This document shows positions 2,638 through 23,684 of a stretch of 39,085 nt of DNA, piece after piece (the first letter of the stretch is position 1; every line of letters starts with the position of its first letter). The notes under the pieces were generated by a model. That model was not told the origin of the DNA and did not search any database. It saw only the letters and a program-made list of their open reading frames with translations. The position numbers and the translations under genes are program-made. The stretch is from a virus (lineage: Duplodnaviria; Heunggongvirae; Uroviricota; Caudoviricetes), in IMG/VR virus record IMGVR_UViG_3300032116_000060, positions 1-39,085 of that record; one strand, 5' to 3'.

Positions 2638-3188
2638 TAATCTAAAACTATTTTTGTGTAAAGAATCTTATTAGATTCGTAATTAAATGCCTTTACAATC
2701 ATAGTATCACCTCTCATCCTACTAATCGGTGAAATGATGGTGTTTATTTCTCCTTTTGTCCCACTATATGATGCTTTGTTTACAGTAGGAACTAATTCAT
2801 CCTTTGAGGCAATAAGTGGTGGTAAATTAGCAATTGTAAATTGACCGGTATAATAATTAAGGTATGATTTTGTGATGGTTGCAATTGTATCATTTCTTTT
2901 TAGCATCCAATATAAGTTACTTTCCCACTCAATTTTTTGTGGAGGAAAAGGCTCTTTACCATTCACTAAAATTCTACCAGTAACCCTATGAGATTGTTGA
3001 TTAAGAGTTGTATCAATTTTAAGGTGATAAAACCCATTACCATCTTTTAGTAAAGACCTACTACCATCTCTCATTAAAACTGAATCAATTGTAAAGGTAT
3101 ATTCTTTAATTGGTTGAACACTTTCCACATCTTTCTCGCACGCAGAAAAAAGAAAAAACGCCGAAATACCTATTAAGGTTTTTTTCAT
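2637..3188 (-). CDS. Putative lipoprotein (start revised to MKKTL at 3188)
   Basis: Signal peptide MKKTLIGISAFFLFSA|C with a lipobox followed by EKD. ATGA overlap with the upstream stop. Confidence 0.7.
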   Translation of the reverse strand: MKKTLIGISAFFLFSACEKDVESVQPIKEYTFTIDSVLMRDGSRSLLKDGNGFYHLKIDTTLNQQSHRVTGRILVNGKEPFPPQKIEWESNLYWMLKRNDTIATITKSYLNYYTGQFTIANLPPLIASKDELVPTVNKASYSGTKGEINTIISPISRMRGDTMIVKAFNYESNKILYTKIVLD

Positions 3189-3640
3189 AGTAAATGTTTT
3201 AATACTGATTCCCAATCCGGAAATTTATTAGTTCCAAAATGAATATGCTCTCCTCCGAAATTTTCTACACCATTTGCTTTTCTATCATCAATAATGTAAT
3301 CACCAATTAACATTCCTTTCAAATGTGTTATGGCCATCTTCTTATAGAATAGTTCACCAAAGTACTCTTCAATCCAAAACCTCTTATCCATAGCGGCCAT
3401 TGGATTACCCCACGGCGCTGCGGTTGCAATATACATTTCATACTTACCACTCTCTTCCAATTTCTTAATCGCCTCAATAGCCCCTTTTATCGGCGGAGGG
3501 TTTCGGAAAATACCAGGTATATGGTCGTAATCACCTTCGTATGATGTTTTTAACAATTCGTTTTTAGAGATGGTTTCCTCAACATGTCCATTGAAATCAA
3601 CTAACACACCATCCATATCAATCCACAATACTTTTTTCAT
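3185..3640 (-). CDS. 5'(3')-deoxyribonucleotidase, HAD superfamily (NT5C-like)
   Basis: IDMDGVLVDF, KRFWIEEYF, GDYIIDD and FPDW motifs. Confidence 0.9.
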   Translation of the reverse strand: MKKVLWIDMDGVLVDFNGHVEETISKNELLKTSYEGDYDHIPGIFRNPPPIKGAIEAIKKLEESGKYEMYIATAAPWGNPMAAMDKRFWIEEYFGELFYKKMAITHLKGMLIGDYIIDDRKANGVENFGGEHIHFGTNKFPDWESVLKHLL

Positions 3641-8781: not shown

Positions 8782-8799
8782 TATGATTTTATTAGTATT

Positions 8800-8830
8800 C
8801 AAAGATACTAAAAAATTGTGTGATTTCCAA
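8800..8830 (-). promoter_or_regulatory. Bacteroidota-type promoter (T)TTGGA-N18-TATCTTTG
   Basis: Equivalent to TTTG-N20-TAnnTTTG. Confidence 0.75.
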
Positions 8831-8835
8831 ATAAA

Positions 8836-9861
8836 TTATTCTCTAATTGTATCTAATGTTACACAATGAGGGCCTCCACTAAAAGTTCTAGCGTGTCTCA
8901 TTTTGACAGGTATAGAATCCACTCCCCACTTTTTTAATTCTCTCATAAGTGGAATTTGTCGTTCTTCTACAATCATAGTGTTTTCATCGTAAGAAAGGGT
9001 GTTCATTCCCAACCACGGCGATGCTTCCGCCCAATGTTCTAGGAAAGGAGTGTCAACCATCTCAGGAGAGTAGATTTTATCCCATTTGCGAAAGACTTCT
9101 GGCATATTGGTATCATTTACCCTTTTAGGATTAAGTAAGACCAGTCCCTCTCTAATCAACACGAAAGTGGTATCAATATGGATGAATGCATATACATCTT
9201 GAATAGGATGAACTTTGTACTTTTCTTTCATGTTTTCATCCAACCATTTTTGTAAATATTGTGCACCTGCTAAGTTACCGGTATTGGAAACCAAATAGAT
9301 TATATCGTTATTACACTTTAACAGGTTAGCAGCATCAAATACAGGTTCTTCGTTCCCTAATGTTGGGCCAGGTAACAATCCCCTATCATAAATAGAATCC
9401 AATAATTTAGGTTTAGGAAAATCTACCCAATGGTTTTCATCGAAAAGGTGTTTAAATGCCCTCGCTTCATTTTGTCTTTGACGGAGAGCCATAGGTGTAG
9501 CAATTACTTTATCTTCTATAACTAACATAGAATCTCGTGGGCAATATCCATAATACCCATCTACTTCCCAATTTTCAGTTACATATTTTTCACTCCAATC
9601 AATTAAAGCGGGTCTGAATACTTCTACCCCTAACCCCTCTAATGTTTTACTTAAATCATCCAAATCTTCAATTGTTTCTTCAATCATCCAATTAGGATAT
9701 CTTCCATATGGAATACGAAGAAATTGTTCATCGGTGTAATTAGCATAATCAATTGTGTGTAGGGATTTATCTCTAACGGTTGGTATTTGTGCAAATTCAG
9801 GTCTTCCTACAATTATTTGTTTAAGTTTTCCCCATTCGTTTTTAATGTAAGGTTTTATCAT
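8836..9861 (-). CDS. Amidinotransferase (glycine/inosamine-phosphate amidinotransferase family)
   Basis: NEWGKLKQIIVG, YCPRD, VFDAAN, HIDT and C-terminal GGPHCVTLD, i.e. the Asp-His-Cys catalytic set. Confidence 0.92.
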   Translation of the reverse strand: MIKPYIKNEWGKLKQIIVGRPEFAQIPTVRDKSLHTIDYANYTDEQFLRIPYGRYPNWMIEETIEDLDDLSKTLEGLGVEVFRPALIDWSEKYVTENWEVDGYYGYCPRDSMLVIEDKVIATPMALRQRQNEARAFKHLFDENHWVDFPKPKLLDSIYDRGLLPGPTLGNEEPVFDAANLLKCNNDIIYLVSNTGNLAGAQYLQKWLDENMKEKYKVHPIQDVYAFIHIDTTFVLIREGLVLLNPKRVNDTNMPEVFRKWDKIYSPEMVDTPFLEHWAEASPWLGMNTLSYDENTMIVEERQIPLMRELKKWGVDSIPVKMRHARTFSGGPHCVTLDTIRE

Positions 9862-10403
9862 CTATCTCTTTTTTGTAATATTGGATTATTTGTAGGCCAT
9901 TCCATTTGAAACTCTGGATCATTCCACTTAACTACATATTGTTCATCTGCATCCACATAACCATCTTTATAAAATAGGTTATAGTGAAACATACAATCGG
10001 TTAGTGCATAATGTCCATTTGCAAATCCCGGCGGAACTAATACCTGATTTCTCAATCTTTCGGTTATAATGTATGATTCCCAATCTCCATAAGTTGGTGA
10101 ACCTTCTCTCATATCTAAAACAACCAAATATATATCACCTACTACCGCTTGAACTAATTTCCAAGTCTTTTTATCCCAATGTAATCCTCTTAATACACCT
10201 TTGTAAGAACGTGAAAATCTTCCATGTATTGAAAGTTCACTTTTATCATAATGTATGTGATTCATTACCGGATGCTGTTCCGAATGATATGTTGTCCATA
10301 TTTCACCTCTATACTCTCTGAATACCGATGGTTGAAATACCGGAACATCAAATCCAAATTTTTTTGATGGAGAAACTTGAAACTCATCCCATTTATTGCT
10401 CAT
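9858..10403 (-). CDS. rmlC: dTDP-4-dehydrorhamnose 3,5-epimerase family
   Basis: SYKGVLRGLH, VLDMREGSPTYG, VPPGFANGH and VKWNDP motifs. Confidence 0.9.
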   Translation of the reverse strand: MSNKWDEFQVSPSKKFGFDVPVFQPSVFREYRGEIWTTYHSEQHPVMNHIHYDKSELSIHGRFSRSYKGVLRGLHWDKKTWKLVQAVVGDIYLVVLDMREGSPTYGDWESYIITERLRNQVLVPPGFANGHYALTDCMFHYNLFYKDGYVDADEQYVVKWNDPEFQMEWPTNNPILQKRDR

Positions 10404-10407
10404 AACT

Positions 10408-11259
10408 TTAAATTAACTTACTTTTAGTATAATTATCTTTCATATATTTTTTAATGTTCATTATTGGTTCATTCACATCTTTAAAAGTAGAATACAAATT
10501 ATCATCGTATAACTTTAAAAAATCTTGATATACCGAATGATGGTATTTTGTGGTATGATGTAATAAATCTCTTGCTAAAAGTGATTCATCGTCTCTACCA
10601 TGCCATCCTCTACTACCTTCAATTACATAATAATTTGCTCCAATTTCACTTGCCAACCCTCTTATCGCCGAAGTGTTTTTATGCCAATTTAATTCAACTT
10701 GCTCATTAGTTAAAAGAGACTCTTTCATTAGATTACCAAATTTAGATTCCCAATTTTTATTATAGTTCGCGATAATATACCAGTGAGGTCTTCCATTTTC
10801 AATAAATTCATATCGAGGATACAATGGCGCATAATGGAATATATTTTTTATTTTAAGTTCTTTATAAAAAGCAAATAATAATCTAAAATGGGTATCCGTT
10901 CCTGTACCCCCTATTCCCAAATTCCAAAATTTACGACCTAATATTTTACTTAATTTATAAGACCATACATTTTCTAAATGATGACCTATTCCAAATGTAT
11001 GAGAACACCCTAAATAAACATCACCTTCATCATATGAATTAAAATCATCCGGAGTTCTAAATCCAGCATTATTTAGTTTGTATTCTATTGGATTTAATTC
11101 GTAATATTGAATACTGGGTTTATCCAGTTCTGAAATAATATGCCTATCCCAAAATTCCTTTGAATCAGTTGGTATATATTCATAAGTTTCATTCGGTTTT
11201 AAATTTAAATCATCTAATTCACATCTGTATTTTAGAATTTTATTTGTTAAATATTCCAT
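10408..11259 (-). CDS. SGNH/GDSL-like protein; C-terminus KSKLI
   Basis: LGCSHTFG block I, NLGIGG, and late RDLLHH. Confidence 0.6.
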   Translation of the reverse strand: MEYLTNKILKYRCELDDLNLKPNETYEYIPTDSKEFWDRHIISELDKPSIQYYELNPIEYKLNNAGFRTPDDFNSYDEGDVYLGCSHTFGIGHHLENVWSYKLSKILGRKFWNLGIGGTGTDTHFRLLFAFYKELKIKNIFHYAPLYPRYEFIENGRPHWYIIANYNKNWESKFGNLMKESLLTNEQVELNWHKNTSAIRGLASEIGANYYVIEGSRGWHGRDDESLLARDLLHHTTKYHHSVYQDFLKLYDDNLYSTFKDVNEPIMNIKKYMKDNYTKSKLI

Positions 11260-11260
11260 A

Positions 11261-11947
11261 TTAAATCAATGATTTTTTGAGTTTTATATTAGCTTTTCCA
11301 AAGTGTTTAATTGATTCAAATAATGTTTTAAGCTCACTATCTACAATTTTTAAATCAATCATAGATTTTTTAACAGCAATCCATATTATAATACCCTCCA
11401 TAGCACCAGGTAAATCGTAAGCCAATTTTTGATAAGGTCTAGTTTGCCTATCAATCTTTTCCCACCATTGAATAAAACTACGTTTTTTATCATTATCTTT
11501 TATATGCAAAACAAATTTACCTTCATGTATCAATTCTAAAGCATCATCGGTTACGGTAGTAAGAATAGATAAATAATCTTTCATATATTCCAACGATCCA
11601 TATACATCTCTCAATTCATCCAATCCAACTATTTTCGATGCATGAAATCCTTCATCTATATGATTCAGTATAAAAAAATCCGCATCACTTTTGATAAATG
11701 TATCTGTATCTAAAAAAAATAGTGTATCAAATTCAGTCAAAGCCTCCCCAATAACAATTCTTTTTAAATTGTAATTAAATGATTCCGATAATTTTATAAC
11801 CCTATAAACACCTTCGATAATTTTTGAAGGAGAATCAGTTCCGACTATTATTTTAAAATCCTTATCTAAATCCAATATAGATTTTGCAACTATATTAAAT
11901 TCATTAATATGTTCATCGCCGTATGCAAGAAAGCAAAAACAAAACAT
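11261..11947 (-). CDS. GT-A-like glycosyltransferase; C-terminus KKSLI
   Basis: FFLDTDTF DxD motif after KRIVIGEAL, with an N-terminal Rossmann-like strand-helix pattern. Confidence 0.55.
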   Translation of the reverse strand: MFCFCFLAYGDEHINEFNIVAKSILDLDKDFKIIVGTDSPSKIIEGVYRVIKLSESFNYNLKRIVIGEALTEFDTLFFLDTDTFIKSDADFFILNHIDEGFHASKIVGLDELRDVYGSLEYMKDYLSILTTVTDDALELIHEGKFVLHIKDNDKKRSFIQWWEKIDRQTRPYQKLAYDLPGAMEGIIIWIAVKKSMIDLKIVDSELKTLFESIKHFGKANIKLKKSLI

Positions 11948-12606
11948 TATATAATCTTATTTAAAGTATTTTGTATTCTAACCTTTTTAGTTTCAGATAA
12001 TATAAATTCATTATAATATGAATCTATTAAGTTTATTTCCAAATAATTAAATATTTTTTCTATCTCACCCTTTTTATAGGATTCGAATATATCTTCATAA
12101 TAAAAAATGGGTTGTTCACATTTGATTGATATACTAGATAGTAATTTAGCGGATGCCGTATATCTATCTACCATATTTTGAATATATAAAGAATCTATTT
12201 CTGCTATATTGTATTTTTTTGGAGTATGCCAATCTATGCCGTATTTTCTAAACATAGTTTCATTAAAAGCAAAACTTTCAGATTGTGCTAATTTATCAAT
12301 TCTATCCAATAAAATTATTTTATCGAAAAATGATATACACCAATCGAAATATGAATTCGAACTATTAAAAGATTTTAAAGGATACTCATTATTTTCAACT
12401 AATAGTAATGTTTTTACTAATAGATTATTACAATTTTGCAATGGTATAATAGTTTGAAAATCGAATCCTTTGTTTTTATACAATTGATAAAAGTTTGGAT
12501 TAAATGGTTCTATAAAAAGGGAATAATCCGGATTTAAATGTGCATTTATTAATTTAGTTAAAGAGGTAGAACCACTTCTAGGAGTAGCCAAAACTAAAAT
12601 TTTCAT
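11947..12606 (-). CDS. PAPS-dependent sulfotransferase; C-terminus LNKII
   Basis: LATPRSGSTSL (5'-phosphosulfate loop), LDRIDKLAQSES (3'-phosphate site) and FYYEDI. Confidence 0.8.
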   Translation of the reverse strand: MKILVLATPRSGSTSLTKLINAHLNPDYSLFIEPFNPNFYQLYKNKGFDFQTIIPLQNCNNLLVKTLLLVENNEYPLKSFNSSNSYFDWCISFFDKIILLDRIDKLAQSESFAFNETMFRKYGIDWHTPKKYNIAEIDSLYIQNMVDRYTASAKLLSSISIKCEQPIFYYEDIFESYKKGEIEKIFNYLEINLIDSYYNEFILSETKKVRIQNTLNKII

Positions 12607-13121
12607 AAAATTGATTTTTCTTGCATTCTAAATTTATGCAAAAACATAGCAATCGCCCATCTTTCACCACTTGTTATGGGAGTAACTTGATGAGGTGTCT
12701 GTGATTGATATATGCATACATTACCAATTTTTTTATTTATATAAATAGGATTATCGTTTTCATCAAAAATGAGATAATCCCCTCCCATAAAATTTTCGTT
12801 AAGAACAATACCTACATTCCATTCTTTTAAAGGTGATCCAGTATCTATGTGCTTACCAAATTCATCACCTATGGTATAATGATGTAAATTTAATTTTGTA
12901 GGTCGGGTATGGATTTTTAATTTAGTTTCATTTTCAAAAAAATCACACATTCTATTTATAATCCAATTTATATCATCTATAAATTCTAGTGCATAAAATT
13001 TATATTTGAAATTATCGAATATATCCCATCTACCATTATCACCCAACAGAGGATACTTATATTTTAAGTCAATAATATATTCACATTCCTCTTGTGAAAA
13101 TAAGATTGATTGATATAACAT
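12603..13121 (-). CDS. 2OG-Fe(II) oxygenase; C-terminus EKSIL
   Basis: KHID, GGD and PHQVTPITSGERW motifs. Confidence 0.9.
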   Translation of the reverse strand: MLYQSILFSQEECEYIIDLKYKYPLLGDNGRWDIFDNFKYKFYALEFIDDINWIINRMCDFFENETKLKIHTRPTKLNLHHYTIGDEFGKHIDTGSPLKEWNVGIVLNENFMGGDYLIFDENDNPIYINKKIGNVCIYQSQTPHQVTPITSGERWAIAMFLHKFRMQEKSIL

Positions 13122-13123
13122 AT

Positions 13124-13261
13124 TTAACTTAGATGTCTATCTTTAATTTTATTAACTACCGTTTGAATAGCAGCATTTACTTTTACTTTAGTATCATTAG
13201 ATAAAGCTACAATACTTGGCTTAATCGTTTGAATCGGTCTATTAATTCTTATATCTGACAT
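13124..13261 (-). CDS. 45-aa small protein (not in ORF track)
   Basis: MSDIRINRPIQTIKPSIVALSNDTKVKVNAAIQTVVNKIKDRHLS* fills the gap between the Hint gene and the next oxygenase. Confidence 0.75.
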   Translation of the reverse strand: MSDIRINRPIQTIKPSIVALSNDTKVKVNAAIQTVVNKIKDRHLS

Positions 13262-13273
13262 AATTAAATTATT

Positions 13274-14767
13274 TTAAAGTTTAGGGGGTTGGCCGCCTCC
13301 GCCACAACCCGAACAGGTGTTGTCATAACAATAGTTTCCACAATATGACCACGGACAATAACAACTATTGTGCATTACTGAAAAAACATCATCTCCGATA
13401 TCAACCAAAAAAAGGTCGGATGGCTCGAAATCCAATCCGTAAACCATCATTTGAGCGTGTTCCATTTCTAAATTAGTTATTTCTAATGTCGATAATTGTT
13501 GTGTATTAGAATCGGTTACAACTAATTTATCACCAATATACATTTGGTTTAGTTTTTCAAATCTTGTTGATGTTGAGCCGGATTCTTCAATATAGTATGT
13601 ACACGATGGAGAATCTACCCAACTTTTACCATCAGCTGTCGTTACCCTTATATAAATTGTATCTATTGATGAAGAAATAATTCCTTGTAAAGATGATGAT
13701 GTTTGAAGTAAGGTTTCATTGGATTTTGATAAACTACCACTCCATCCAAATACATTTAATTTACCTTCTTCAAAATTAGCAGCGTGATTATCGTTATAAT
13801 CTACAAAATCTATTGAACGAATATAATCTCCGATCTGTAAATCACTTGCATTAATAATTGAACCCGTATAATTAATAATTTTAGAGTCCATATCGGTGTG
13901 ATAACTTTCAATTTTTTGATTCACACCAACTTCCTTTGTGATGTATTTCTGTCTACTCTTTTGAATTAATTTTCTATCAGCAGTAAATTCATTAGCTATA
14001 AAATCAATTGGTATTACAGTGGATTGCTTATATCCACCCATACTGATTACTTCCAAATTACTACCATATATAACATCAATGCTTCTTATTATAGAATATT
14101 TATTATCCACTAAATTATCAGTTGAATATAAAAATTCTTGTATAAGGTATTCCGAAGTATTCGATGATTTTAATGAATCTAATTGAGATTGTGATTCTAA
14201 TGAATATATTGATGGATATAATGCAGTATCATAGCTAGGAGCCTGTGCTTTTACTATAACATTTGGTGTTCCATTGGTTTGAAAACTAACATTATTTAAT
14301 GTATCCATACTAACTTCAGATGAACTAAAATAAGTTTTTGGTATATATTGGCTACCGCTCATCAGTTCACAGAATCCAAATTTATCAGCACAATACGAGT
14401 CATCAATCAATGCTGTCGTATCATACGATTGTCTTAATATAAATTTAGTAGGAGAATCTTCTATATATGGTACCGTAACAGAATTAAAAGGAACGATGTA
14501 TTCATTAAAAGAAATGTTATTTTCATTACATTTTTGAACTAATTTTTCCTTAAATCGATATCTTTCATTAGATGGTGAATGGGAATCTCTTTCAGTATAT
14601 ATAAAATGAAATTCTGATATGTTATTCTGAACTAACATATCAAATAACCCATCATATTCCAATAGTTCAGCTCCAGGATTATAAATGGTTGTATTTGTAT
14701 TTATCTCTAAAATTTTTACATCATTATTGTATTCCAATAAATCTGAACCCAATATTATTGCTTTCAT
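13274..14767 (-). CDS. Circularly permuted ATP-grasp + Hint domain + C-terminal Cys-rich 30-aa peptide
   Basis: aa 1-289: N-terminal GSD...KILEINTN, then DKF...IPKTY, IVK, YLIQEF. aa 290-467: Hint-like TGSIINASDLQIGDYIRS, YIGDKL, VYGLDFEP and VMHN. aa 468-497: SCYCPWSYCGNYCYDNTCSGCGGGGQPPKL. Confidence 0.8.
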   Translation of the reverse strand: MKAIILGSDLLEYNNDVKILEINTNTTIYNPGAELLEYDGLFDMLVQNNISEFHFIYTERDSHSPSNERYRFKEKLVQKCNENNISFNEYIVPFNSVTVPYIEDSPTKFILRQSYDTTALIDDSYCADKFGFCELMSGSQYIPKTYFSSSEVSMDTLNNVSFQTNGTPNVIVKAQAPSYDTALYPSIYSLESQSQLDSLKSSNTSEYLIQEFLYSTDNLVDNKYSIIRSIDVIYGSNLEVISMGGYKQSTVIPIDFIANEFTADRKLIQKSRQKYITKEVGVNQKIESYHTDMDSKIINYTGSIINASDLQIGDYIRSIDFVDYNDNHAANFEEGKLNVFGWSGSLSKSNETLLQTSSSLQGIISSSIDTIYIRVTTADGKSWVDSPSCTYYIEESGSTSTRFEKLNQMYIGDKLVVTDSNTQQLSTLEITNLEMEHAQMMVYGLDFEPSDLFLVDIGDDVFSVMHNSCYCPWSYCGNYCYDNTCSGCGGGGQPPKL

Positions 14768-14791
14768 TTGTTACAATTATCTTTTTTCAAC

Positions 14792-14801
14792 TATAAATAT
14801 A
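14792..14801 (-). promoter_or_regulatory. TATATTTATA motif upstream of the ATP-grasp-Hint gene
   Basis: Lies in the 41-nt gap, the longest intergenic gap between 10408 and 21707. Confidence 0.55.
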
Positions 14802-14808
14802 TATAAAC

Positions 14809-15114
14809 TTAAATTATTGATTTTTCACGCTTATCCTCTATCTTTTCAATAAACCCATTATCACACTCTTCCCATTTTAGGAGTGGACAGCTATTATAAA
14901 TTTTAGTAAATATTTTTTTATTAAGGGGGCAGCCACACCCTTTACAATATTCAGACCACTTTTGATTTTTTATGACGGATTTTTTTAATTCACATTTTGA
15001 ACAAATAGAATACCTTCTTTCTGCTAATTTTTTCTCATCATCAGATGGGTTTCTGGCAGTTATCCATGCATTAAAAATTTCTTTATAATCGTATTTAATA
15101 CCATTTATTTTCAT
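14809..15114 (-). CDS. Cys-rich putative Zn-binding protein (DUF6171-like); C-terminus EKSII
   Basis: RYSICSKC...CKGCGCPL...K...SCPLLKW pattern. Confidence 0.7.
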   Translation of the reverse strand: MKINGIKYDYKEIFNAWITARNPSDDEKKLAERRYSICSKCELKKSVIKNQKWSEYCKGCGCPLNKKIFTKIYNSCPLLKWEECDNGFIEKIEDKREKSII

Positions 15115-15123
15115 AATAATTAA

Positions 15124-15753
15124 CTATAATAAAGAATTTGTTTTTAGGGGTTTTGCAACAAAATTTAAATTAAGTATATATCTACTACCTTTAGTTGGAT
15201 AATTTGCGTGATGTGCATATCTCCCATCAAAAACTAAACATCTTCCCATTTTTGGAGAAATTTTAGTCAATAGTTCAAAAGAATCTAAATTTACATTATC
15301 AAAATTTTCCATATACGTCTCTGCGTTATCTCCAAATTTATTACGATAAATACACGTATCACCATCTATATCATTAATATAATATACTGCAGCAATATGT
15401 TCTGCTATTCTATCATAGTGTAATAAATCAATTGGGTTATACTCATAATTTAACGGAGATGTATGGTTAATTTTCCATCTGTAAGTGGTTACAAATTCTA
15501 ATCCTATTTTTTTGGATATAATACGTTGTATATTCTTAATTAGCTCATCTATTTGTTCGTTCTTACAGTCGATTTGAGGATGAACTTTTGCAGGAAATTT
15601 ATGTGTATTTTTTTTACCACCGTAATTTCCTGTTATATTCTCTGTTTCATTCCATTTAATCTCACTATTGTTCGCATAGTTATATAAGATTTTTTGCTCA
15701 TCTACTGATAGCAAATCGTCAAAAACTTCATATATTTTGTCGGAATAAAGCAT
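15124..15753 (-). CDS. 2OG-Fe(II) oxygenase-like; C-terminus TNSLL
   Basis: LHYD, VYYINDIDGDT and HHANYP...RYILNLNF motifs. Confidence 0.8.
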   Translation of the reverse strand: MLYSDKIYEVFDDLLSVDEQKILYNYANNSEIKWNETENITGNYGGKKNTHKFPAKVHPQIDCKNEQIDELIKNIQRIISKKIGLEFVTTYRWKINHTSPLNYEYNPIDLLHYDRIAEHIAAVYYINDIDGDTCIYRNKFGDNAETYMENFDNVNLDSFELLTKISPKMGRCLVFDGRYAHHANYPTKGSRYILNLNFVAKPLKTNSLL

Positions 15754-15754
15754 T

Positions 15755-16543
15755 TTATATTAAGGTTTTAGTTGTTTTATGTAAATCATAGTAATCATAA
15801 ATACTATTATATTTGACAACAAAATTGTCATCTAATGGTAGATTTGTTTTTATATTTTTACTAGAATTTACATATTGTATTTTAAATGGTTTTTTAGTTT
15901 TATCAGATACCCATTTATCTAAATCTTGCAGTTTATCAAATTCAAACCATATTATATTTGGGTTATGATTTGTCCAAAAAGAAATCGGAGTTAATAGGAT
16001 ATCAATTAGATTAACCAGATAACCATTCTTTTCTTTCCAATAATTTTCTTCGTTTTTTCTACTTGATAAAGTTACGTTAATATCGACCGGTTGGTTAATT
16101 AATTTTAATTCAATTAGATAATCTGAAATTTTATCCCATCTCGTCTTTTTGCTAATTAAATCATCTTTTGTGAAAAAAAATAATTCATTCAAAGTAAAAT
16201 GGGAAAACGTATCATAAAAATCTAAATAACCCAATCGTTTAAAATCGGATAACATATGTTTGTAGAATGAATAGAAACGCTCATGTCTTTCTCTATTAAC
16301 CGCTATCACAGGAACATCAATACCAAATTTAGATTGTAAATCTGAAATGGTTTCATGTCCATGAAATATATGATTCATTAAATCTTCTTTTTCAATTGAA
16401 TTAAAATCAATATGTTCATTTGATACTTCCCATTCACCATTATTAGTTTTTACGCCAATATTATTTATAATACAAGAATAGTGAAACGAAGTAGATGCAC
16501 ATCTCGGTAAACTTAAATATATAAACTTATTATCTACTAGCAT
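15755..16543 (-). CDS. Sulfotransferase (family 2-like); C-terminus TKTLI
   Basis: FIYLSLPRCASTSF, NRERHERFYSFY and VNSS motifs. Confidence 0.75.
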   Translation of the reverse strand: MLVDNKFIYLSLPRCASTSFHYSCIINNIGVKTNNGEWEVSNEHIDFNSIEKEDLMNHIFHGHETISDLQSKFGIDVPVIAVNRERHERFYSFYKHMLSDFKRLGYLDFYDTFSHFTLNELFFFTKDDLISKKTRWDKISDYLIELKLINQPVDINVTLSSRKNEENYWKEKNGYLVNLIDILLTPISFWTNHNPNIIWFEFDKLQDLDKWVSDKTKKPFKIQYVNSSKNIKTNLPLDDNFVVKYNSIYDYYDLHKTTKTLI

Positions 16544-17112
16544 TATAATAGTGATTTGGTAACATTTTTAGATGGCCAAACATTTAAGGAATACCTATTT
16601 CTATTTTCTATCTTTTTGACAGAGTGACTTATATTAGAATCAAATATAAAAACGCTACCTATTTTCTTATTAATCGTATAAATGTTATTATCTATATTAT
16701 ATTGTATTTCACCTCCATCATAATCATCATTTAGTTGAATTATAAATGTAATCGTAGCTCCATTTAGTATTTCATGACTGTCAGAATGCCAATCTAAAAA
16801 ATCTCCTACACCATATTTGTTAAAAGAGTATTTTTTAATATAGCTGTATTCTATTCCTTTAAATGGATTTAAATTATTTGATAAATTAATAATTTTATTT
16901 GTCAGGCTTTTTACAATAGGTAAATCAAGTTGTTCATTGAGAAAATAACACCCTAATCTTTTATTACCTGCATATTCCAGGTTTTCACCAACTAATTCTC
17001 CATTGACAAATTTTGAAGATTTCATTTGGATTAAATCAATTGAATTGCCCAAATTAATTAAAGAAATACATTCATCTTCGTTTAAAAAATTTTCAATATA
17101 GCTTGCAAACAT
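16543..17112 (-). CDS. 2OG-Fe(II) oxygenase; C-terminus TKSLL
   Basis: WHSD, YDGGE and SHSVKK...RYSLNVW motifs. Confidence 0.9.
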   Translation of the reverse strand: MFASYIENFLNEDECISLINLGNSIDLIQMKSSKFVNGELVGENLEYAGNKRLGCYFLNEQLDLPIVKSLTNKIINLSNNLNPFKGIEYSYIKKYSFNKYGVGDFLDWHSDSHEILNGATITFIIQLNDDYDGGEIQYNIDNNIYTINKKIGSVFIFDSNISHSVKKIENRNRYSLNVWPSKNVTKSLL

Positions 17113-17753
17113 TATATTATTGATTTTTCTTTTTTAATATATTCAAACCCAACATTCCCCGCTAATACTATTCTATCAATAGTTGAATTAGGAGCGTTGT
17201 TTGGAGAATGAGGCATATCTGCTTCCATTATGATTAAATCATCCTCTTCAGGTCTAATCCAATACTCTTGACCATCTTTACCTTTAAAATATAATACACC
17301 ATCTTCTCCATTCATTACATCTGGCATTTGAATATAATAAACATAGGTATAGGATGGTGGAAATGATTTTGTTTTTTTATTGATTTCAGTATGAATATGA
17401 AACTTTTGATTATCATCGTAAAAGTTTGGTTGAATTGGATCTATAGATCTAACTACATTTACCCAAGCATCAATATTAATTTTATTAAAAGGTAAGTTAT
17501 TTGTAGTGTAAAGTTCTTTACATAAATCTATGCCATTTTGAATAACTTCATCTAATTTACTTTTAATCTCAATTTTACCTATAAAATTTAAATTATTATT
17601 CCATTCCTTTTTATATCCAAATCCATCAGTTTTGACACCAGGTTGAGAGTCAATAACTGAATAGGCTTCTTTTAGAAATAATGATTTATCGGTTAATTTA
17701 TTTAGTTTTGTTTTCCAAATAAAAGTGGTATCATTAAAATATAACTTTTCCAT
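17112..17753 (-). CDS. 2OG-Fe(II) oxygenase-like; C-terminus EKSII
   Basis: FHIH, YVYYIQMP and PHSP...RIVLAGN motifs. Confidence 0.75.
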   Translation of the reverse strand: MEKLYFNDTTFIWKTKLNKLTDKSLFLKEAYSVIDSQPGVKTDGFGYKKEWNNNLNFIGKIEIKSKLDEVIQNGIDLCKELYTTNNLPFNKINIDAWVNVVRSIDPIQPNFYDDNQKFHIHTEINKKTKSFPPSYTYVYYIQMPDVMNGEDGVLYFKGKDGQEYWIRPEEDDLIIMEADMPHSPNNAPNSTIDRIVLAGNVGFEYIKKEKSII

Positions 17754-18994
17754 TAAATTAATTCTTTTTTTAATACTTTTTTATTTTTTCTAAAAATAGT
17801 TTGATAATTGTGTGTAAAGAATGTCAACATATTTTGTGGAGTTTCTACTAAATCAAAGGATTTCAATAAATCTCTATCGTTTTTGATAATAATGTTGTTA
17901 TCTTTATCTAGTATTTGTTTCAATTTTTTTGGAATTGGTTTATTATATGCATCAATCCAAAATTTGTTATCCAATCTTTCCGCTAAATAGTGGTATCTAA
18001 CAAACATCATATTTTGCTCATTAATTTCTTCACACCATTTATTGAACCCATCTTTATAATTTTCATCAAAGTTTTTATCAACCAATCTTTTAAGTTGCAT
18101 AATAGTCGACATCAACGATGTTGCTTCTAATGGTTCTATAAACCCATATGATAATCCTATTGATATAGAGTTACCAATCCAACTTCTTTTATATCTACCT
18201 GGATTATAACTAAACACTTTTTGAATTTCTATTTCATGCCCTAAATAGTCTTCAACTTCTTTTTTCGCATCTTCTACTGTTATATAATCTTTATTAAAAG
18301 AATAGCCACATCCCCATCTGTGTTGTAGTTCAATTTGCCACATCCACCCACAACTCATAGCAACCATATTTGTATATGTCTTATCTTTAATTGTAAGTTT
18401 TTTATTTTGAGGTAGGAAAAATGCAATGCTACTATTAATCATTAAATATTTTGAATAATCAACCCATTCCTCATTAAATAGATTTCCAACTAATCTATTA
18501 AATCCACTACAGTCAAAAACAAAATCAGAACTAATTATTCTATCATCTACTAATTTGAAACTTTTAATAAACTCACCTGTATTATTAATTGTTTCTATTT
18601 CCCCATCAATCCAATTAACACCCCTATCTATTGCTATTTGTTTAAAGTAATCTGCAACTTTTCTTGCATCAAAATGATAACCAAATGATTTTGTAAAAAC
18701 AGTTGGCTCTTCACCTGTAAATAAATGTTTTGCTGTGCTACCATCTCCAAGCCAATTTATTAAGTTTAGCCCACGCTTATTTGTAGCACCTGTTTTTTCA
18801 TAAAAATCTTTTTGATTTATACCTAATAATGATAAAATTCTACCGAAGTTTGGTGTGCTTCCTTCGCCCGCTCCTAGTATTCCTATTTTGGAACTTTCTA
18901 CCAATGTTACATTTGTATTTTCCCAAAATTTATTTACTATTAGAGCAGTAAGCCATCCAGCAGTCCCACCTCCGATTATGATTATTTTTTTCAT
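17753..18994 (-). CDS. Flavin-dependent (tryptophan-halogenase family) halogenase; C-terminus KKELI
   Basis: IIGGGTAGW, GAGEGS, GATNKRG (catalytic Lys position), DCSGF, GWMWQIEL (WxWxI) and FIEPLEATS. Confidence 0.9.
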   Translation of the reverse strand: MKKIIIIGGGTAGWLTALIVNKFWENTNVTLVESSKIGILGAGEGSTPNFGRILSLLGINQKDFYEKTGATNKRGLNLINWLGDGSTAKHLFTGEEPTVFTKSFGYHFDARKVADYFKQIAIDRGVNWIDGEIETINNTGEFIKSFKLVDDRIISSDFVFDCSGFNRLVGNLFNEEWVDYSKYLMINSSIAFFLPQNKKLTIKDKTYTNMVAMSCGWMWQIELQHRWGCGYSFNKDYITVEDAKKEVEDYLGHEIEIQKVFSYNPGRYKRSWIGNSISIGLSYGFIEPLEATSLMSTIMQLKRLVDKNFDENYKDGFNKWCEEINEQNMMFVRYHYLAERLDNKFWIDAYNKPIPKKLKQILDKDNNIIIKNDRDLLKSFDLVETPQNMLTFFTHNYQTIFRKNKKVLKKELI

Positions 18995-19551
18995 TATAAT
19001 AATGTTTTCTTATAATTTTTTTGTGTTTCTAATTCCAACCAATTAACAATTGAATACCTAACTCCATTTTTAATTTCTTTAATTCTATGTTTAGTTAAAG
19101 ATGAAAATGCAAATAAATTACCTATTCCTTTTTTTAACGAATATACCTTACCATCAATTTCTAACTCTAATTCACCTCCTTCATATTCATCGTTAAGTTG
19201 AATTACAATTGTTAAAATTCGTTGATTATATACATCATCTGAAGAATCGGTGTGCCAATTAAAATAATCTCCATTTTGGTATTTAGTAAATTGATAGTTT
19301 GAAATTTTGAAATTGTATCCTTTTATACCAAAGTATTCTTTTAGCTTTTTAATAATTCTATCATTAAGTTCTTCCAAATCGATTCCCGCAACTTTAGATT
19401 TTCTTTTACTAACATCAATAACATTATTCATTAATTTACTATCATACACTTCCGCTATTTTTAAAACCGATTCATTTACACACTTATTAAGTATCTGATT
19501 ACATTCTTCTTTAGAGAATACATTTTCGAAAACTTTAAATTTACCAATCAT
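18994..19551 (-). CDS. 2OG-Fe(II) oxygenase (start revised to MIGKF at 19551); C-terminus KKTLL
   Basis: WHTD, YEGGEL and HRIKEIKNGVRYSIVNW motifs. Confidence 0.9.
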   Translation of the reverse strand: MIGKFKVFENVFSKEECNQILNKCVNESVLKIAEVYDSKLMNNVIDVSKRKSKVAGIDLEELNDRIIKKLKEYFGIKGYNFKISNYQFTKYQNGDYFNWHTDSSDDVYNQRILTIVIQLNDEYEGGELELEIDGKVYSLKKGIGNLFAFSSLTKHRIKEIKNGVRYSIVNWLELETQKNYKKTLL

Positions 19552-20066
19552 ATTAAAGAAAATTTTGATTGTTTTTTTGAAAACCAAACAATTAATACCT
19601 CTCGATTTCCTTTTGTAATCGGCTTTACTTCATGAAAATCATTACCACCAAAGAAACTTACATATTCACCGTTTGTATTTAATTGTATCTTTTTATCATT
19701 TACATACATATCCCCTCCCTCAAATTCATCTGATAAAATTATACTTACCGTTTTATGTGTTGCATATCTATCTTTATGTTTTTTCGCAAAATCACCTACA
19801 CCATAGATGTGTTTATGTATCATATACAAATACTCAATGGGTTCTTCTAATTTCTCACATAAAAAGTTGTTAAGATTTTTGTTTTTTAATGAATATATTA
19901 TAGAATTTTCGGTAATAAGAGCCACATCATCCCCTTTTTCTCCAATATATGTGGAATAAAGTTGAGAATGTGCAGATTTTACGAACTTAATTTCATCATC
20001 ATTCATCAATGGAGTTATTTCCAATTGAGATTTTAAATACAAAAAATCATCTAACAATAATTTCAT
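19548..20066 (-). CDS. 2OG-Fe(II) oxygenase; C-terminus KFSLI
   Basis: KHKD, FEGGD and HEVKPITKGNREVLIVW motifs. Confidence 0.9.
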   Translation of the reverse strand: MKLLLDDFLYLKSQLEITPLMNDDEIKFVKSAHSQLYSTYIGEKGDDVALITENSIIYSLKNKNLNNFLCEKLEEPIEYLYMIHKHIYGVGDFAKKHKDRYATHKTVSIILSDEFEGGDMYVNDKKIQLNTNGEYVSFFGGNDFHEVKPITKGNREVLIVWFSKKQSKFSLI

Positions 20067-20686
20067 ATTATTTTATTTGTTTTAGATTGAAAGGCCACTA
20101 AATCATCTTTTATATCTAAAAAGGTATGCATTTTTTTATAAAATTCATAGCAACCTTTCCAACCAGGATGCCAATCCATAGGATCACCTCCTTCATCTGC
20201 AATCGAAGTAACCTGAATCAACTCAACAAAATCAGAAGTCATCTTATGAAAATCTTCATTCCAGGTCACAAATACCGGAGAAAAATCATTATACAACTCT
20301 TTAAGTTTTTTTAAAAATAGTATTTCATTATTTCTTTCACCATTTAACCAATGTGATGTTTCGGATAATCTAACTTCTAATAATTTTTTTGCAAATTGTT
20401 TATCTTTATACCATTCCCAATTAAAATATTTTATATGATGATGTGTTTCTCTTTCCCCAAAAAATCTTCTTGGAAATCTACCTGGTGCACTAAATACAAT
20501 CACTAATCTATCACCATATTCGTATTTTGGAATTAAACCTGTTTGATAAAGAATAGAATGATTATCCGCGCCAAATTTTCCTAACTTAATAACATTGTAG
20601 TGATTGGATAAATAATTAGTCCAATGAGTTTCAGGCATATCCCAATCTACAAAACTATCACCGCAAATGTAAATGCTAGGTTTCAT
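20063..20686 (-). CDS. SGNH/GDSL-like protein (start revised to MKPSIY at 20686); C-terminus TNKII
   Basis: ICGDSF, GADN and MDWHPG motifs. Confidence 0.65.
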   Translation of the reverse strand: MKPSIYICGDSFVDWDMPETHWTNYLSNHYNVIKLGKFGADNHSILYQTGLIPKYEYGDRLVIVFSAPGRFPRRFFGERETHHHIKYFNWEWYKDKQFAKKLLEVRLSETSHWLNGERNNEILFLKKLKELYNDFSPVFVTWNEDFHKMTSDFVELIQVTSIADEGGDPMDWHPGWKGCYEFYKKMHTFLDIKDDLVAFQSKTNKII

Positions 20687-20687
20687 A

Positions 20688-20903
20688 TTAATTATCCTTT
20701 TTAAGGCCAAACTTTATCCACTTATACCAAACTCTTTCGTGAAGATAATACTGAATAGGTTTATAGATTAATTCTGCTACACCAAATGCTGCACCAACTT
20801 TAATTGAGCCACTTACCCACCACATAATACCAAACCCTATTAGAGTTGAAACTATTCGATATGATATAGTTTTAGCTATGTGCCTCTTTCTCTCTACTAT
20901 CAT
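20688..20903 (-). CDS. DUF2061-like small membrane protein
   Basis: RHIAKTISYRIVST...YYLHERVW pattern. Confidence 0.85.
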   Translation of the reverse strand: MIVERKRHIAKTISYRIVSTLIGFGIMWWVSGSIKVGAAFGVAELIYKPIQYYLHERVWYKWIKFGLKKDN

Positions 20904-21279
20904 CGTTATCTATATTATAAACAATTACATCACCGTTAGAATCGATGTATTTTTTTCTAATCGCAGTTCCGCTTATGGCTTCGATTTCTTTCGGAGGAGT
21001 ATGATATATTACCTCATATCCAACTGCTCTACCATAGTTTACCGATTCGATATCTGGTATCACACTTATGTATATTTTCTTTGAGTTTTCTACAAAAAAA
21101 GGTTCTTTACACAAATCCATTAAAACCTGATGAGCAGACTTAGGATTGTTCTCATCTTTCGGAACATCTCTAATTGCTACCCAAACATCTTTCCCTTTAT
21201 CCAATTGTTGGCGGATTAACCATTCGTGTCCGGCGTGCCAAGTCTGCCACCTTCCAATAAACATTGCATATTTTTTCAT
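20872..21279 (-). CDS. HxGH nucleotidyltransferase (cytidylyltransferase-like)
   Basis: FIGRWQTWHAGH and the late ISGTAIR motif. Confidence 0.8.
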   Translation of the reverse strand: MKKYAMFIGRWQTWHAGHEWLIRQQLDKGKDVWVAIRDVPKDENNPKSAHQVLMDLCKEPFFVENSKKIYISVIPDIESVNYGRAVGYEVIYHTPPKEIEAISGTAIRKKYIDSNGDVIVYNIDNDDSREKEAHS

Positions 21280-21707
21280 ATTAGTGATTTTAATCTTTGA
21301 AATGTTGTAAACTCATCCTCATCTGTCGTATCTACATCTATAAAGTTTTTCAACGGCGGTTCGTAGTTAGAAACGTGAAACGATTCTCTACCCCTTATAT
21401 CGGTAGTATGAACATATAATTCTTTTATATTCTCACCCATTTCGGTTTTAAATGCTTCTCTTTGGTCTCTATAAGGAGAAACTAATGAGACAATTGCCAC
21501 ATTACCTTTGTGGTGAAAAAACTTAGCCATTCGTTGAGCAAGTTCTATGTTCTTTCTCCTTCCTGCTTCGGAGTAATCTTTATTATCAAATATGGCCCTT
21601 ATATCATCTCCATCGATTACCATACCCCTCTCCCTAAAATGAGCTTGAAACCAATTTGCTAATGTAGTTTTCCCCGCACCTGGCTGACCCGTAAACCAAT
21701 ATATCAT
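21276..21707 (-). CDS. cysC: Adenylyl-sulfate kinase; C-terminus LKSLI
   Basis: WFTGQPGAGKTT, DGDDIR, SLVSPYRDQR and YEPP motifs. Confidence 0.92.
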   Translation of the reverse strand: MIYWFTGQPGAGKTTLANWFQAHFRERGMVIDGDDIRAIFDNKDYSEAGRRKNIELAQRMAKFFHHKGNVAIVSLVSPYRDQREAFKTEMGENIKELYVHTTDIRGRESFHVSNYEPPLKNFIDVDTTDEDEFTTFQRLKSLI

Positions 21708-22825
21708 ATAAACATAAATTTTAAAAGCTGTTTATTATTATCTCTTATGAACGCATTCCACTTATCCATATTATTAAAATATTCATCTAAATGATTTTTC
21801 TGCACATTATGATACCAATATAAATCTTTTGATAATATTGAATTTAAATGGGCTATCAAATCATCTTTTTCCATTCCAAAGAAATAAATAGGTGATTCAA
21901 AAGTTAAACCTAATCCTTCCAGTATTGTTTTTAATTTTGGATTACCATAATAAACAAATGGCAATCCTGTTCGAAGTGGTTTATGAAGTTTTTCTGAAAT
22001 ATGAACACCCGGTAATAATAAGTGTGGCTGTGTTTCTGTAATAATTTCAAAAAAGGATTCTAAATAAATTCGATAATTGAAATCGGGTAAGGTAGTAACG
22101 TGATTGATACCCAAAACCTCGTCTCTATTTAAAACATTTTCATTTAATTGTGAAGTAGTTGGAAACGCATCATAATACTTTGGATACTCAATTCCAAAAT
22201 GTGAAACCTCTTTATGAAATTTATCTTTATCTATCTCAATCGAATCAAATTTTATTTCATTAAACGAAATGTTCCCTTCATTATTAAACCCGTTTTTATA
22301 TAAGAATTTAAGTATATCAAATCGTATATCGGAATAATGATTATTTAGAAACATAAATTTCTTTTTTATTGTTCCTAAATCTTTTGTTTTAAGGTATTTC
22401 CAAAATTCAAAAAAATCAGGTCTATCCAAATCACAATGAATCCAAGCAGGATTATTTAGGAATACAATCGAATCTTTTTTTATCTCTTCGATGTTGATAG
22501 TAACAACAATAGAATCCGCATTATTAATCATCCTTTTCAACGAACTTATCACCGTATCAGTTGTAATCGATTCTTGCCTTTCTAACGATAATACAAATTT
22601 ATATTTTATTAAATCATCACCTAATATATCTTTTATCTGTCGGTTAATATCGATTATTATATTATCCGAAAATGTAAAACGGTCTAATGATTTATCTATG
22701 CTAAGAAACCTTACATTTTTATGAAAGTTCGGAGGAATCGCCAAACCCTTTAACTCTACATAATTAATCCCAAAATCAATTAACTCAACTTTAAGATTTT
22801 GATTTATCATCAAACCTTTACGCAT
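21704..22825 (-). CDS. Hypothetical protein of phage modification islands
   Basis: 373-aa ORF with FFEIITET, ISEKLHKPL and PFVYYG segments. Activity unknown. Confidence 0.7.
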   Translation of the reverse strand: MRKGLMINQNLKVELIDFGINYVELKGLAIPPNFHKNVRFLSIDKSLDRFTFSDNIIIDINRQIKDILGDDLIKYKFVLSLERQESITTDTVISSLKRMINNADSIVVTINIEEIKKDSIVFLNNPAWIHCDLDRPDFFEFWKYLKTKDLGTIKKKFMFLNNHYSDIRFDILKFLYKNGFNNEGNISFNEIKFDSIEIDKDKFHKEVSHFGIEYPKYYDAFPTTSQLNENVLNRDEVLGINHVTTLPDFNYRIYLESFFEIITETQPHLLLPGVHISEKLHKPLRTGLPFVYYGNPKLKTILEGLGLTFESPIYFFGMEKDDLIAHLNSILSKDLYWYHNVQKNHLDEYFNNMDKWNAFIRDNNKQLLKFMFI

Positions 22826-23684
22826 TTTTAATTAGGTTTAGGATGTTTTCACCAAAGTATTCATGCCCTTCTAAGCTGTAATGAAGATTTTCTATACCTA
22901 AATCTTTAAGAGTAAATGTATTACTTTCTATTTCTTTTGTTTTTTCAAGTGGTAGAAGGTTGTGGATTATTTTATGGTATTTGAAATCCATAGAGTTTGT
23001 CATTCTATGAAAAATTGAATAGCTTTTAAAATTCATCGCATCCATTAATCCTTTGAAGGCAAGTAATAGATTTACATTTTCATAATGAGCAAGATATTCA
23101 GTATTCATTAAGTTATTATAGAATTGAAAAAATGTATAGAATTTTTCTTCATCTAATGGTATTTGGTATTCATCTATCCAATTTTTAAGAATGGAAAAAT
23201 CTGATAGACCTGGATTAACTATTTGTATTAAACTTCTATATCCTATCTCACCTCTATATGAACTACTCCATTGTGTAATACATAATGGATTCTTATATTT
23301 AAAGAAATCCATTTTATTATATCGTGTAAATCTTTTGTTAATCGGGTCTAAAAAAGTCCAATGTTCTTCACCGGTTTTATATTCAAAGATTTTTTCATCG
23401 TTTTTAGTAGGGCCAACATTAAAAAGATAATACCATCTTCGTAGGATTGATTTATTTGATGAGCCGCTTTTTGAAATGTTTAAAACGGGAACATTAAGAA
23501 GTTCGGCAACCTTCGTTCCCCACGAAAAAGAACGGTCTAAAAATACTTCGGTATCGGAGTATTTTTTTAAATCTAACCAAAAATCATAATTCTTACATTC
23601 ACTTTGTAAGGATTCGAATTGCTTACATAACCCATTACCTTCGGAAAATGAATCTCCATTAATTATAACTAAATCATATTTCAT
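22818..23684 (-). CDS. SGNH/GDSL-like protein
   Basis: INGDSFSEG, NISKSGSSN and NLHYSLEGH motifs. Confidence 0.65.
   Translation of the reverse strand: MKYDLVIINGDSFSEGNGLCKQFESLQSECKNYDFWLDLKKYSDTEVFLDRSFSWGTKVAELLNVPVLNISKSGSSNKSILRRWYYLFNVGPTKNDEKIFEYKTGEEHWTFLDPINKRFTRYNKMDFFKYKNPLCITQWSSSYRGEIGYRSLIQIVNPGLSDFSILKNWIDEYQIPLDEEKFYTFFQFYNNLMNTEYLAHYENVNLLLAFKGLMDAMNFKSYSIFHRMTNSMDFKYHKIIHNLLPLEKTKEIESNTFTLKDLGIENLHYSLEGHEYFGENILNLIKNA

Follow-up and report, generated by a model that had tools for sequence, protein, structure and literature searches.

The window analyzed here is a 39,085-nucleotide stretch that constitutes the first 39 kb of a linear 103-kb Caudoviricetes record, IMG/VR IMGVR_UViG_3300032116_000060 (32% G+C; approximately 40% complete). 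Nearly all genes of the window are on the minus strand, and positions 10408 to 21707 form a densely packed gene block, referred to here as the island, in which fourteen proteins end with a similar short C-terminal tag of lysine, serine or threonine, and two aliphatic residues. The tag is conserved at the level of the peptide, recurs in diverged islands that share the same precursor protein, and is found on enzymes expected to touch the Cys-rich peptide that this precursor carries. Together these features point to a pathway-specific recognition handle.

All of the tagged genes are on the minus strand and are described in order of increasing coordinate. The first, at 10408..11259, encodes a 283-amino acid protein ending KSKLI. 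It is followed by a GT-A-like nucleotide-sugar transferase (11261..11947; 228 amino acids; KKSLI), assigned from Atlas features (0.96) and from structure comparison with nucleotide-diphospho-sugar transferases (TM 0.80), by a Sulfotransfer_1-like protein (11947..12606; 219 amino acids; LNKII; PF00685, E = 9.8e-5), and by a 2-oxoglutarate (2OG)-Fe(II) oxygenase (12603..13121; 172 amino acids; EKSIL; PF13640, E = 5.9e-10). Beyond two untagged genes lies a Cys-rich, zinc-ribbon-like protein of 101 amino acids (14809..15114; EKSII), with a 41-nt gap afterwards. Next are a 2OG-Fe(II) oxygenase-like protein (15124..15753; 209 amino acids; TNSLL; PF13640, E = 2.4e-4), a Sulfotransfer_2-like protein (15755..16543; 262 amino acids; TKTLI; Atlas 0.97 with 186 shared features), a 2OG-Fe(II) oxygenase (16543..17112; 189 amino acids; TKSLL; PF13640, E = 1.8e-12), and a 2OG-oxygenase-like protein (17112..17753; 213 amino acids; EKSII; PF13640, E = 9.9e-5). 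A flavin-dependent halogenase of the tryptophan type (17753..18994; 413 amino acids; KKELI; Trp_halogenase PF04820, E = 2.7e-84) precedes two further 2OG-Fe(II) oxygenases. The open reading frame (ORF) of one of these spans 18994..19587 (KKTLL; PF13640, E = 3.2e-14), its likely start being the ATG at 19551, from which the gene overlaps the upstream stop by 4 nt; the other is at 19548..20066 (172 amino acids; KFSLI; PF13640, E = 8.2e-6). The ORF at 20063..20710 (TNKII) likely starts at the ATG at 20686, which would give the N-terminal sequence ICGDSF with the GDS motif typical of SGNH hydrolases, and the protein is called SGNH-like from this motif. The last tagged gene, at 21276..21707, encodes a CysC protein resembling adenosine 5'-phosphosulfate kinase (LKSLI; PF01583, E = 7e-19). 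Searches of Pfam and PHROGs returned no family for 10408-11259 and 20063-20686, nor for the genes at 21704-22825 and 22818-23684.

The original prediction, made from the letters of the window, listed these fourteen termini, and translation of the minus-strand gene chain reproduced every one of them. All fourteen end in [LI][LI], ten have serine or threonine as the third-last residue, and nine have lysine as the fourth-last. Between 10408 and 20710, as had been claimed, the only untagged genes are those at 13274-14767 and 13124-13261, which end PPKL and RHLS, respectively, and in the rest of the window the sole [LI][LI] ending is that of 3185-3640 (KHLL). The described variation in junction spacing is also present: there are four 4-nt overlaps, five 1-nt overlaps, and gaps of 1, 1, 4, 9, and 41 nt. 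Across the whole 103-kb record, counting ORFs of 60 amino acids or more, [LI][LI] ends occur in 14 of 18 island ORFs versus 9 of 136 others (Fisher p = 7e-11). The difference is maintained if only tight junctions are considered, where the next start is within 4 nt (12 of 14 in the island versus 3 of 51 outside it; p = 9e-9). None of the structural proteins in the record is tagged, and another enzyme island in this phage, at approximately 79-88 kb of the record, has genes with ordinary termini. The description of the tagged proteins as fourteen unrelated proteins was overstated. They do cover at least seven folds; however, six of them are paralogs of the PF13640 family (2OG-FeII_Oxy_3), and four of those six fall into one BLAST cluster.

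Searches with the halogenase and with the untagged protein of 13274-14767, hereafter the anchor, identified 11 IMG/VR contigs and 59 metagenome loci from freshwater and marine sources, in which identity to the anchor ranges from 74% down to 27%. The same-strand genes that flank the anchor in these loci, amounting to approximately 40 diverged islands, carry the same type of tail, and the tag has therefore been kept in islands whose anchors have only 27-74% identity. Within 6 kb of the anchor and on the same strand, 273 of 474 genes have the strict tag, compared with 14 of 151 elsewhere (p = 4e-28). BLAST clustering of all ORFs from 42 loci and from this genome gave at least 10 families that are each present in 20-37 loci and are 94-100% tagged. 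The 2OG-oxygenase cluster is tagged in 67 of 67 members, the 213-amino acid family (17112..17753) in 41 of 41, the sulfotransferase-like family (11947..12606) in 35 of 35, the Sulfotransfer_2-like family (15755..16543) in 30 of 30, and the halogenases of the clustered loci in 28 of 28. For the zinc-ribbon family the proportion is 97% of 33 by clustering, and an alignment has the strict tag in 30 of 31 sequences with an invariant lysine at -7. Families assigned by Pfam behave in the same way: an SGNH/GDSL family in the relatives, separate from that of 20063..20710, is 96% tagged (27 members), and radical S-adenosylmethionine (SAM), 2OG-FeII_Oxy_5, and methyltransferase families are tagged in 14 of 14, 9 of 9, and 4 of 4 cases.

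A logo of the tagged families, built from 291 distinct proteins, reads K-k-x-[KN]-[TS]-[LI]-[ILF]-COOH and extends over seven residues, with an information content of 0.5-2.5 bits at -7 to -1 and of 0.2-0.4 bits at -12 to -8. Lysine is found at -7 in 52% and at -6 in 36% of proteins; K, N, or E occurs at -5, and K or N at -4 in 74% (K in 56%). Position -3 is T, S, or K in 81% (T or S in 64%), position -2 is L or I in 94%, and the last residue is I, L, or F in 95% (I in 66%; I, L, F, or M in 98%). There are flavors of the tag. Halogenases have glutamate as the third-last residue, and of the closest 120 homologs (P0003-P0122), all of which are tagged, 87 end K-E-L-I. Freshwater loci have -SLI and a marine clade has -TLF. 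Covariation between flavor and anchor residues was set aside as evidence, because the -TLF loci form one clade and any substitution particular to it would correlate with the flavor. In the AlphaFold2 (AF2) model of the 2OG-Fe(II) oxygenase at 16543..17112 (pLDDT 90.5) residues 181-184 form the final strand, with coil over the five residues that remain, which fits an exposed handle.

Some families of the islands are never tagged: the anchor (0 of 42), a 45-amino acid partner protein (0 of 37), the nucleotidyltransferase-like protein (0 of 15), the DUF2061 protein (0 of 20), and, by the strict pattern, a carbamoyltransferase (0 of 11). Neighboring GT4-FkbM proteins also have no tag. In the window, the DUF2061 small membrane protein is encoded on the minus strand at 20688..20903 (PF09834, E = 1e-15) and the nucleotidyltransferase-like protein, also on the minus strand, at 20872..21279 (phrog_10255, E = 3e-10, with weak CTP_transf_like matches); the latter probably belongs to sulfate activation. 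The tagged CysC of the window is an exception within its own family. By the strict pattern 1 of 13 members is tagged, this being the window copy, and the other 12 have ends such as FIDL, FIEL, and IFL; the tag of this copy is either a recent gain or due to chance. Directly downstream of the island, at 7222-10403, are genes for a dTDP-4-dehydrorhamnose 3,5-epimerase-like protein, an arginine-deiminase-fold protein, and a 526-amino acid protein with a DNA-methylase-like C terminus, and all three are untagged. The island is richer in A+T (window positions 10001-21000; 25-31% G+C) than the sequence further along the window (30-39% G+C), which is consistent with a swappable cassette, and megablast found no match for the island among GenBank phages. 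By its family distribution, the tag is carried by those enzymes that would be expected to act on the peptide and not by the sulfate-activation genes or the adjacent sugar enzymes, and this confinement in turn fits an address or recruitment role.

Homologs of the same enzymes outside such islands lack the tag, as would be expected if it belongs to the island copies only. Ordinary ends are seen in the halogenase and 2OG-oxygenase homologs of Prochlorococcus phage P-SSM2, and also in those of Pelagibacter phage HTVC008M. Among 150 halogenase representatives obtained at 50% clustering, short-form enzymes are tagged in 11 of 14 cases, down to 35% identity, and long-form enzymes have two hydrophobic end residues in only 7 of 136, leaving 129 untagged. 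P0128, which is among these seven, has the terminus NNTLI and directly follows the end of a Hint-type protein and a 37-amino acid partner-like ORF. The distant tagged halogenase P0267 lies directly before an anchor homolog. Untagged short-form halogenases are found in other contexts, in loci L074 and L076. The latter locus also encodes a distant variant of the anchor (L076:13059-15284; 741 amino acids), which has an ATP-grasp-like N-domain and nested or tandem Hint domains but no Cys-rich peptide. Judged from these sequences, the tag seems to have been acquired upon recruitment of the enzymes to the island.

The recurrence of the tag at closely packed gene ends raises the question of whether the DNA or the peptide is conserved. 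It could be supposed that A/T-rich stop-start junctions of coupled Bacteroidota-phage genes chance to encode K-S-L-I, and the A-rich window consensus AAA TCA TTA ATA TAA TG would agree with such a by-product, as would the preference for ATA rather than ATT as the final codon (72% versus 49% in gene bodies). This preference was the one nucleotide effect seen and can be attributed to ATGA and TAATG overlaps, which require ATA. Against a by-product, the serine position is encoded by all six serine codons (AGT 37%, TCA 22%, TCT 18%, TCG 10%, AGC 8%, and TCC 5%), amounting to 45% AGY and 55% TCN, and orthologs swap TCA for AGT or AGC, which have no synonymous path of interconversion with it. Thr, Leu, Ile, and Lys codon use in the tag, including six leucine codons, is like that of the gene bodies. 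At 277 distinct tagged junctions the next start is at -4 in 76, at -1 in 64, and at 0 to +5 in 58; it is 9-75 nt away in approximately 53, where the register of the tag with the stop codon nevertheless holds, and no start was found in the remaining 26. Phenylalanine, whose TTT codon is equally A/T-rich, accounts for only 3% of residues at -2. Tight junctions occur without the tag, both at untagged island genes and at 48 of the 51 tight junctions elsewhere in the genome. The use of all serine codons, the stop-codon register, and the untagged tight junctions indicate that conservation is at the level of the peptide and not of the DNA, in agreement with the earlier proposal of protein-level selection. 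A nucleotide by-product is already contradicted by these observations, and we attach almost no probability to it.

The protein to which the tag is linked is encoded at 13274..14767 on the minus strand and consists of 497 amino acids. Its AF2 model (pLDDT 81.9) contains an ATP-grasp domain similar to GspS and YgiC at residues 1-280 and a Hint domain at residues 287-467 that ends in HN, after which there is a six-Cys, Trp/Tyr-rich, hypervariable peptide of 30 amino acids. By VIA-align, the nearest structures to the N-domain are YgiC (Z 10.0; 204 residues aligned), GspS (Z 9.1), and glutathione synthetases (Z 7-9), with TTLL11, RimK, and LysX as weaker neighbors; at the sequence level this domain has no match in the PDB or Pfam. 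The Mg-binding motif E-x-N, formed by E21 and N23, is invariant in 34 anchor sequences. YgiC and YjfC are peptide-spermidine ligases (cited in PMC12568646). The Hint domain has a Z score of 16.1 to a BIL2/intein structure and of 15-16 across BIL2, the NpuDnaB intein, and hedgehog Hint, and the anchor profile matches the KlbA intein (E = 3e-4). At the end of the domain, N467 is invariant in 34 sequences and H466 is present in at least 90%. Because the residue following HN is variable, the Hint domain probably cleaves rather than splices. Relatives of the anchor were found in approximately 59 metagenomic loci, and a search of 185,579 species genomes with its profile found zero relatives, which supports a virus-only distribution. 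The layout is that of a cluster for a peptide that is synthesized by the ribosome and modified post-translationally (RiPP), with a variable core peptide in a precursor and adjoining genes for a halogenase, 2OG oxygenases, and sulfotransferases, to which the relatives add radical SAM and methyltransferase enzymes.

Single-Hint precursors end in K-[LIV] in 25 of 33 cases despite the hypervariable peptide just before (13274-13279 in the window). The 45-amino acid partner, encoded next to the anchor at 13124..13261 on the minus strand and found in 37 loci, has a conserved tail K-x-K-H-L-S, in which K at -6, K or R at -4, and the H-L pair are invariant in 34 of 34 sequences. Both ends echo the lysine-plus-aliphatic register of the tag. 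In the partner, Lys at -6, Lys at -4, and Leu at -2 stand in the register of the enzyme tag, but the last residue is serine. The partner may occupy the reader site of the tag, as a competitor or a plug. A marine clade has a further arrangement, in which a second, canonical mini-intein-like Hint domain follows the Cys-rich peptide in the same protein (L047:1488-3365, L053:7041-8981, L061:10001-11953, and L062:2530-4536). This second domain starts with C-F-[IV]-[SA]-G-T and ends with NGILVHN, followed by KK; in locus L054 it is a separate ORF without Cys1. The peptide of the marine clade is thus placed between a C-cleaving Hint and a thioester-forming Hint, a layout that resembles engineered split-intein cyclization of peptides and hints at head-to-tail cyclization or thioester activation.

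The reasons for regarding the tag as a pathway-specific recognition handle are that it is conserved as a peptide, is present on all the expected folds and missing from supply and sugar enzymes, is strictly linked to the anchor, and has an exposed end. The original prediction had proposed an address that recruits tailoring enzymes to one scaffold, substrate, or compartment; the distribution of the tag agrees with such a role, which is a putative one. Our tentative preference, which we place somewhat below an even chance, is that the tag docks noncovalently on a reader that the module itself encodes, the precursor's ligase domain being the likeliest. This domain is a candidate because the structures nearest to it are ATP-grasp ligases, which hold peptide or protein tails by the free C-terminal carboxylate. 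In such a model, the heptapeptide would have been added to unrelated enzymes upon their recruitment to a virus-only peptide-tailoring module. The 2OG oxygenases, halogenase, sulfotransferases, GT-A enzyme, and SGNH protein, and likewise the radical SAM and methyltransferase enzymes of the relatives, would dock via the exposed tail and its free carboxylate onto the ligase domain, possibly together with the 45-amino acid partner. Docking would keep them beside the Cys/Trp/Tyr-rich peptide, which is attached to the same protein until the Hint cut. This would be the inverse of the logic of RiPP leaders and RiPP recognition elements (RREs), with the enzymes bearing a short tag and the substrate protein bearing the reader.

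Several points weigh against docking on the ligase domain. We infer both that the tag is bound and what binds it, and the choice of reader is drawn from fold analogy and co-occurrence. The known relatives of the ligase use acidic or small C termini, not basic-aliphatic ones. The invariant catalytic motif suggests that the domain performs chemistry and not docking alone. Locus L076 retains an ATP-grasp/Hint protein, yet the tags of its neighbors are degenerate at best (KNILI and GKKLT), and locus L072 has a tagged halogenase with no anchor within its 7-kb contig. The record is approximately 40% complete and the reader may therefore be encoded elsewhere in the phage or in the host. A complex prediction of the full anchor with the tagged zinc-ribbon protein, which scored 0.02 where the mark was 0.32, speaks neither for binding nor against it.

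A reader in the host is the basis of another explanation, in which the tail is a degron or unfoldase handle recognized by a host AAA+ protein, in the manner of ClpX and its C-motif-2 signals, for scheduled turnover or remodeling of the tailoring enzymes. The lysine-rich run and aliphatic C terminus ending in isoleucine are like the RRKKAI-COOH of phage Mu MuA, a ClpX signal (PMC8138137) and the model for C-motif-2 (PMC12723719), and the -SLI and -TLF flavors of freshwater and marine loci could follow different hosts. However, positions -3 (S/T) and -2 (L) are much more constrained than in the MuA signal, and there is no evident reason why peptide-tailoring enzymes alone among the island and phage proteins should be unstable. 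A CLP_protease search of the 103-kb record found no ClpP, and its sole AAA_2 match (93434-94675) was rejected as a ClpX because it is a MoxR/CbbQ-type ATPase with AAA_5 and CbbQ_C matches. We consider a degron unlikely. The MoxR/CbbQ-type ATPase adjoins a 691-amino acid protein (G000:C1:93434-96862, outside the window), and the pair may be of the CobS/CobT kind, which occurs in other large phages.

The catalytic motif of the anchor bears on a second alternative, in which the ATP-grasp domain would activate the carboxylate of the tag as an acyl-phosphate and ligate it to an amine, which might be that of a polyamine, of an amino acid, or of the new N terminus exposed when Hint cleavage frees the peptide. 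The island would then encode a protein C-terminal conjugation system, with the enzymes and the Cys-rich peptide tethered covalently. The structural neighbors (YgiC/YjfC, GspS, glutathione synthetase, RimK, tubulin tyrosine ligase, and LysX/LysW) all acylate amines with peptide or protein C-terminal carboxylates, E-x-N is invariant even in the second-Hint clade, where the peptide gains a free end only through cleavage by that Hint, and the tags are the sole carboxylates seen to be conserved across many proteins in all clades. Against this, conjugation of at least 10 different enzymes has no obvious benefit, a release enzyme was not identified, and the K-[LIV] end of the precursor or a small molecule would be an equally good substrate; we judge covalent use of the tag to be distinctly unlikely. 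The tag might instead load or sort the enzymes into a compartment or particle such as a capsid or protein shell. Peroxisomal targeting signal 1 (PTS1) and encapsulin loading peptides are likewise short C-terminal signals on unrelated enzymes, and the lysine-rich part could touch nucleic acid. The flanks of the islands, however, differ between loci, with no shell gene conserved beside them in comparisons that did not target shell families, no structural protein of the record is tagged, 2OG oxygenases and flavin halogenases depend on cytoplasmic cofactors, and the tag is tightly linked to the precursor gene instead. Cargo loading is accordingly given a slender probability.

Shared C-terminal address tags on unrelated enzymes are known from peroxisomes, encapsulins, and proteolysis, and comparison with them clarifies what is particular to the tag described here. 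PTS1 is a family of SKL-COOH signals at the extreme C terminus read by the TPR domain of Pex5. It has in common with the phage tag a motif of 3-4 C-terminal residues with a free carboxylate, its presence on unrelated enzymes of a shared pathway, and a contribution from upstream basic residues. It differs in consensus, [SAC]-[KRH]-[LM] as opposed to [TS]-[LI]-[ILF] in the 291 proteins, where the lysine is at -4 and not -2, and in being eukaryotic and organelle-based, whereas the tag comes from a phage of a bacterial host, with neither a compartment nor a reader of the Pex5 type known for it. Encapsulin and microcompartment peptides are also short terminal peptides on unrelated enzymes that a single partner reads; they are longer, can lie away from the extreme terminus, and have as their reader a shell protein whose gene is close by. 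The only large conserved untagged protein flanking the islands is the ligase-Hint anchor, shell families not having been searched directly. The C-motif-2 of MuA, phage-encoded and read via its free end by a hexameric AAA+ protein, has the basic run and aliphatic end but no S/T-L core, and such signals are known from single proteins and not from a whole enzyme set.

RiPP leaders with RREs, and the docking domains of polyketide synthases and nonribosomal peptide synthetases, similarly use short elements to gather cluster enzymes on one substrate or partner. In RiPP pathways the leader is on the substrate and a reader domain is on each enzyme, so that the polarity would be opposite here, and the synthase docking domains are folded pairs of 20-40 residues that each serve one junction, in contrast to one common heptapeptide. 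The tag also agrees with the class I PDZ ligand pattern, [ST]-x-hydrophobic-COOH, through its S/T at -3 (64%) and I, L, F, or M at -1 (98%), but it is additionally constrained at -2 (L/I 94%) and has conserved lysines at -4 and -7; no PDZ_2 or PDZ_6 match (PF13180 and PF17820) was found in the approximately 40%-complete 103-kb record. Closest in fold to the proposed reader are LysW/LysX, RimK/S6, tubulin tyrosine ligase, and YgiC/YjfC, in which an ATP-grasp enzyme reads one exposed tail. In those systems the tail is acidic and is that of a single protein, whereas the tag is basic-aliphatic and on at least 10 enzymes, and catalysis on it by the anchor is hypothetical. Covalent use of the tag would echo the logic of LysW and ubiquitin, with an ATP-grasp domain and an intein-like one as its components.

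We found no description of the tag or the anchor in the literature on phage ATP-grasp, Hint, and halogenase proteins, on intein-like domains with RiPPs, or on shared C-terminal tags, consistent with the original statement that such a tag was undescribed in phages, and for peptide-tailoring pathways, whether viral or bacterial, no paper describing such a tag was found. A similar mix of enzymes has been reported for a cyanophage cluster, with no tag mentioned (Iyer et al. 2021). The tag is abundant: for the halogenase family alone, close metagenomic relatives number in the thousands, and the closest 120 are all tagged. Large phages of both freshwater and marine origin carry it, and it is strictly linked to a ligase-Hint-peptide precursor that is itself undescribed. 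As a genome-mining marker, the ending picks out the pathway genes of the phage island, including families that have no Pfam model. If the tag is indeed a docking handle, the usual logic of RiPP leader and RRE would be reversed in these phages, and it would provide a portable seven-residue tag with which to assemble enzymes on one substrate protein.

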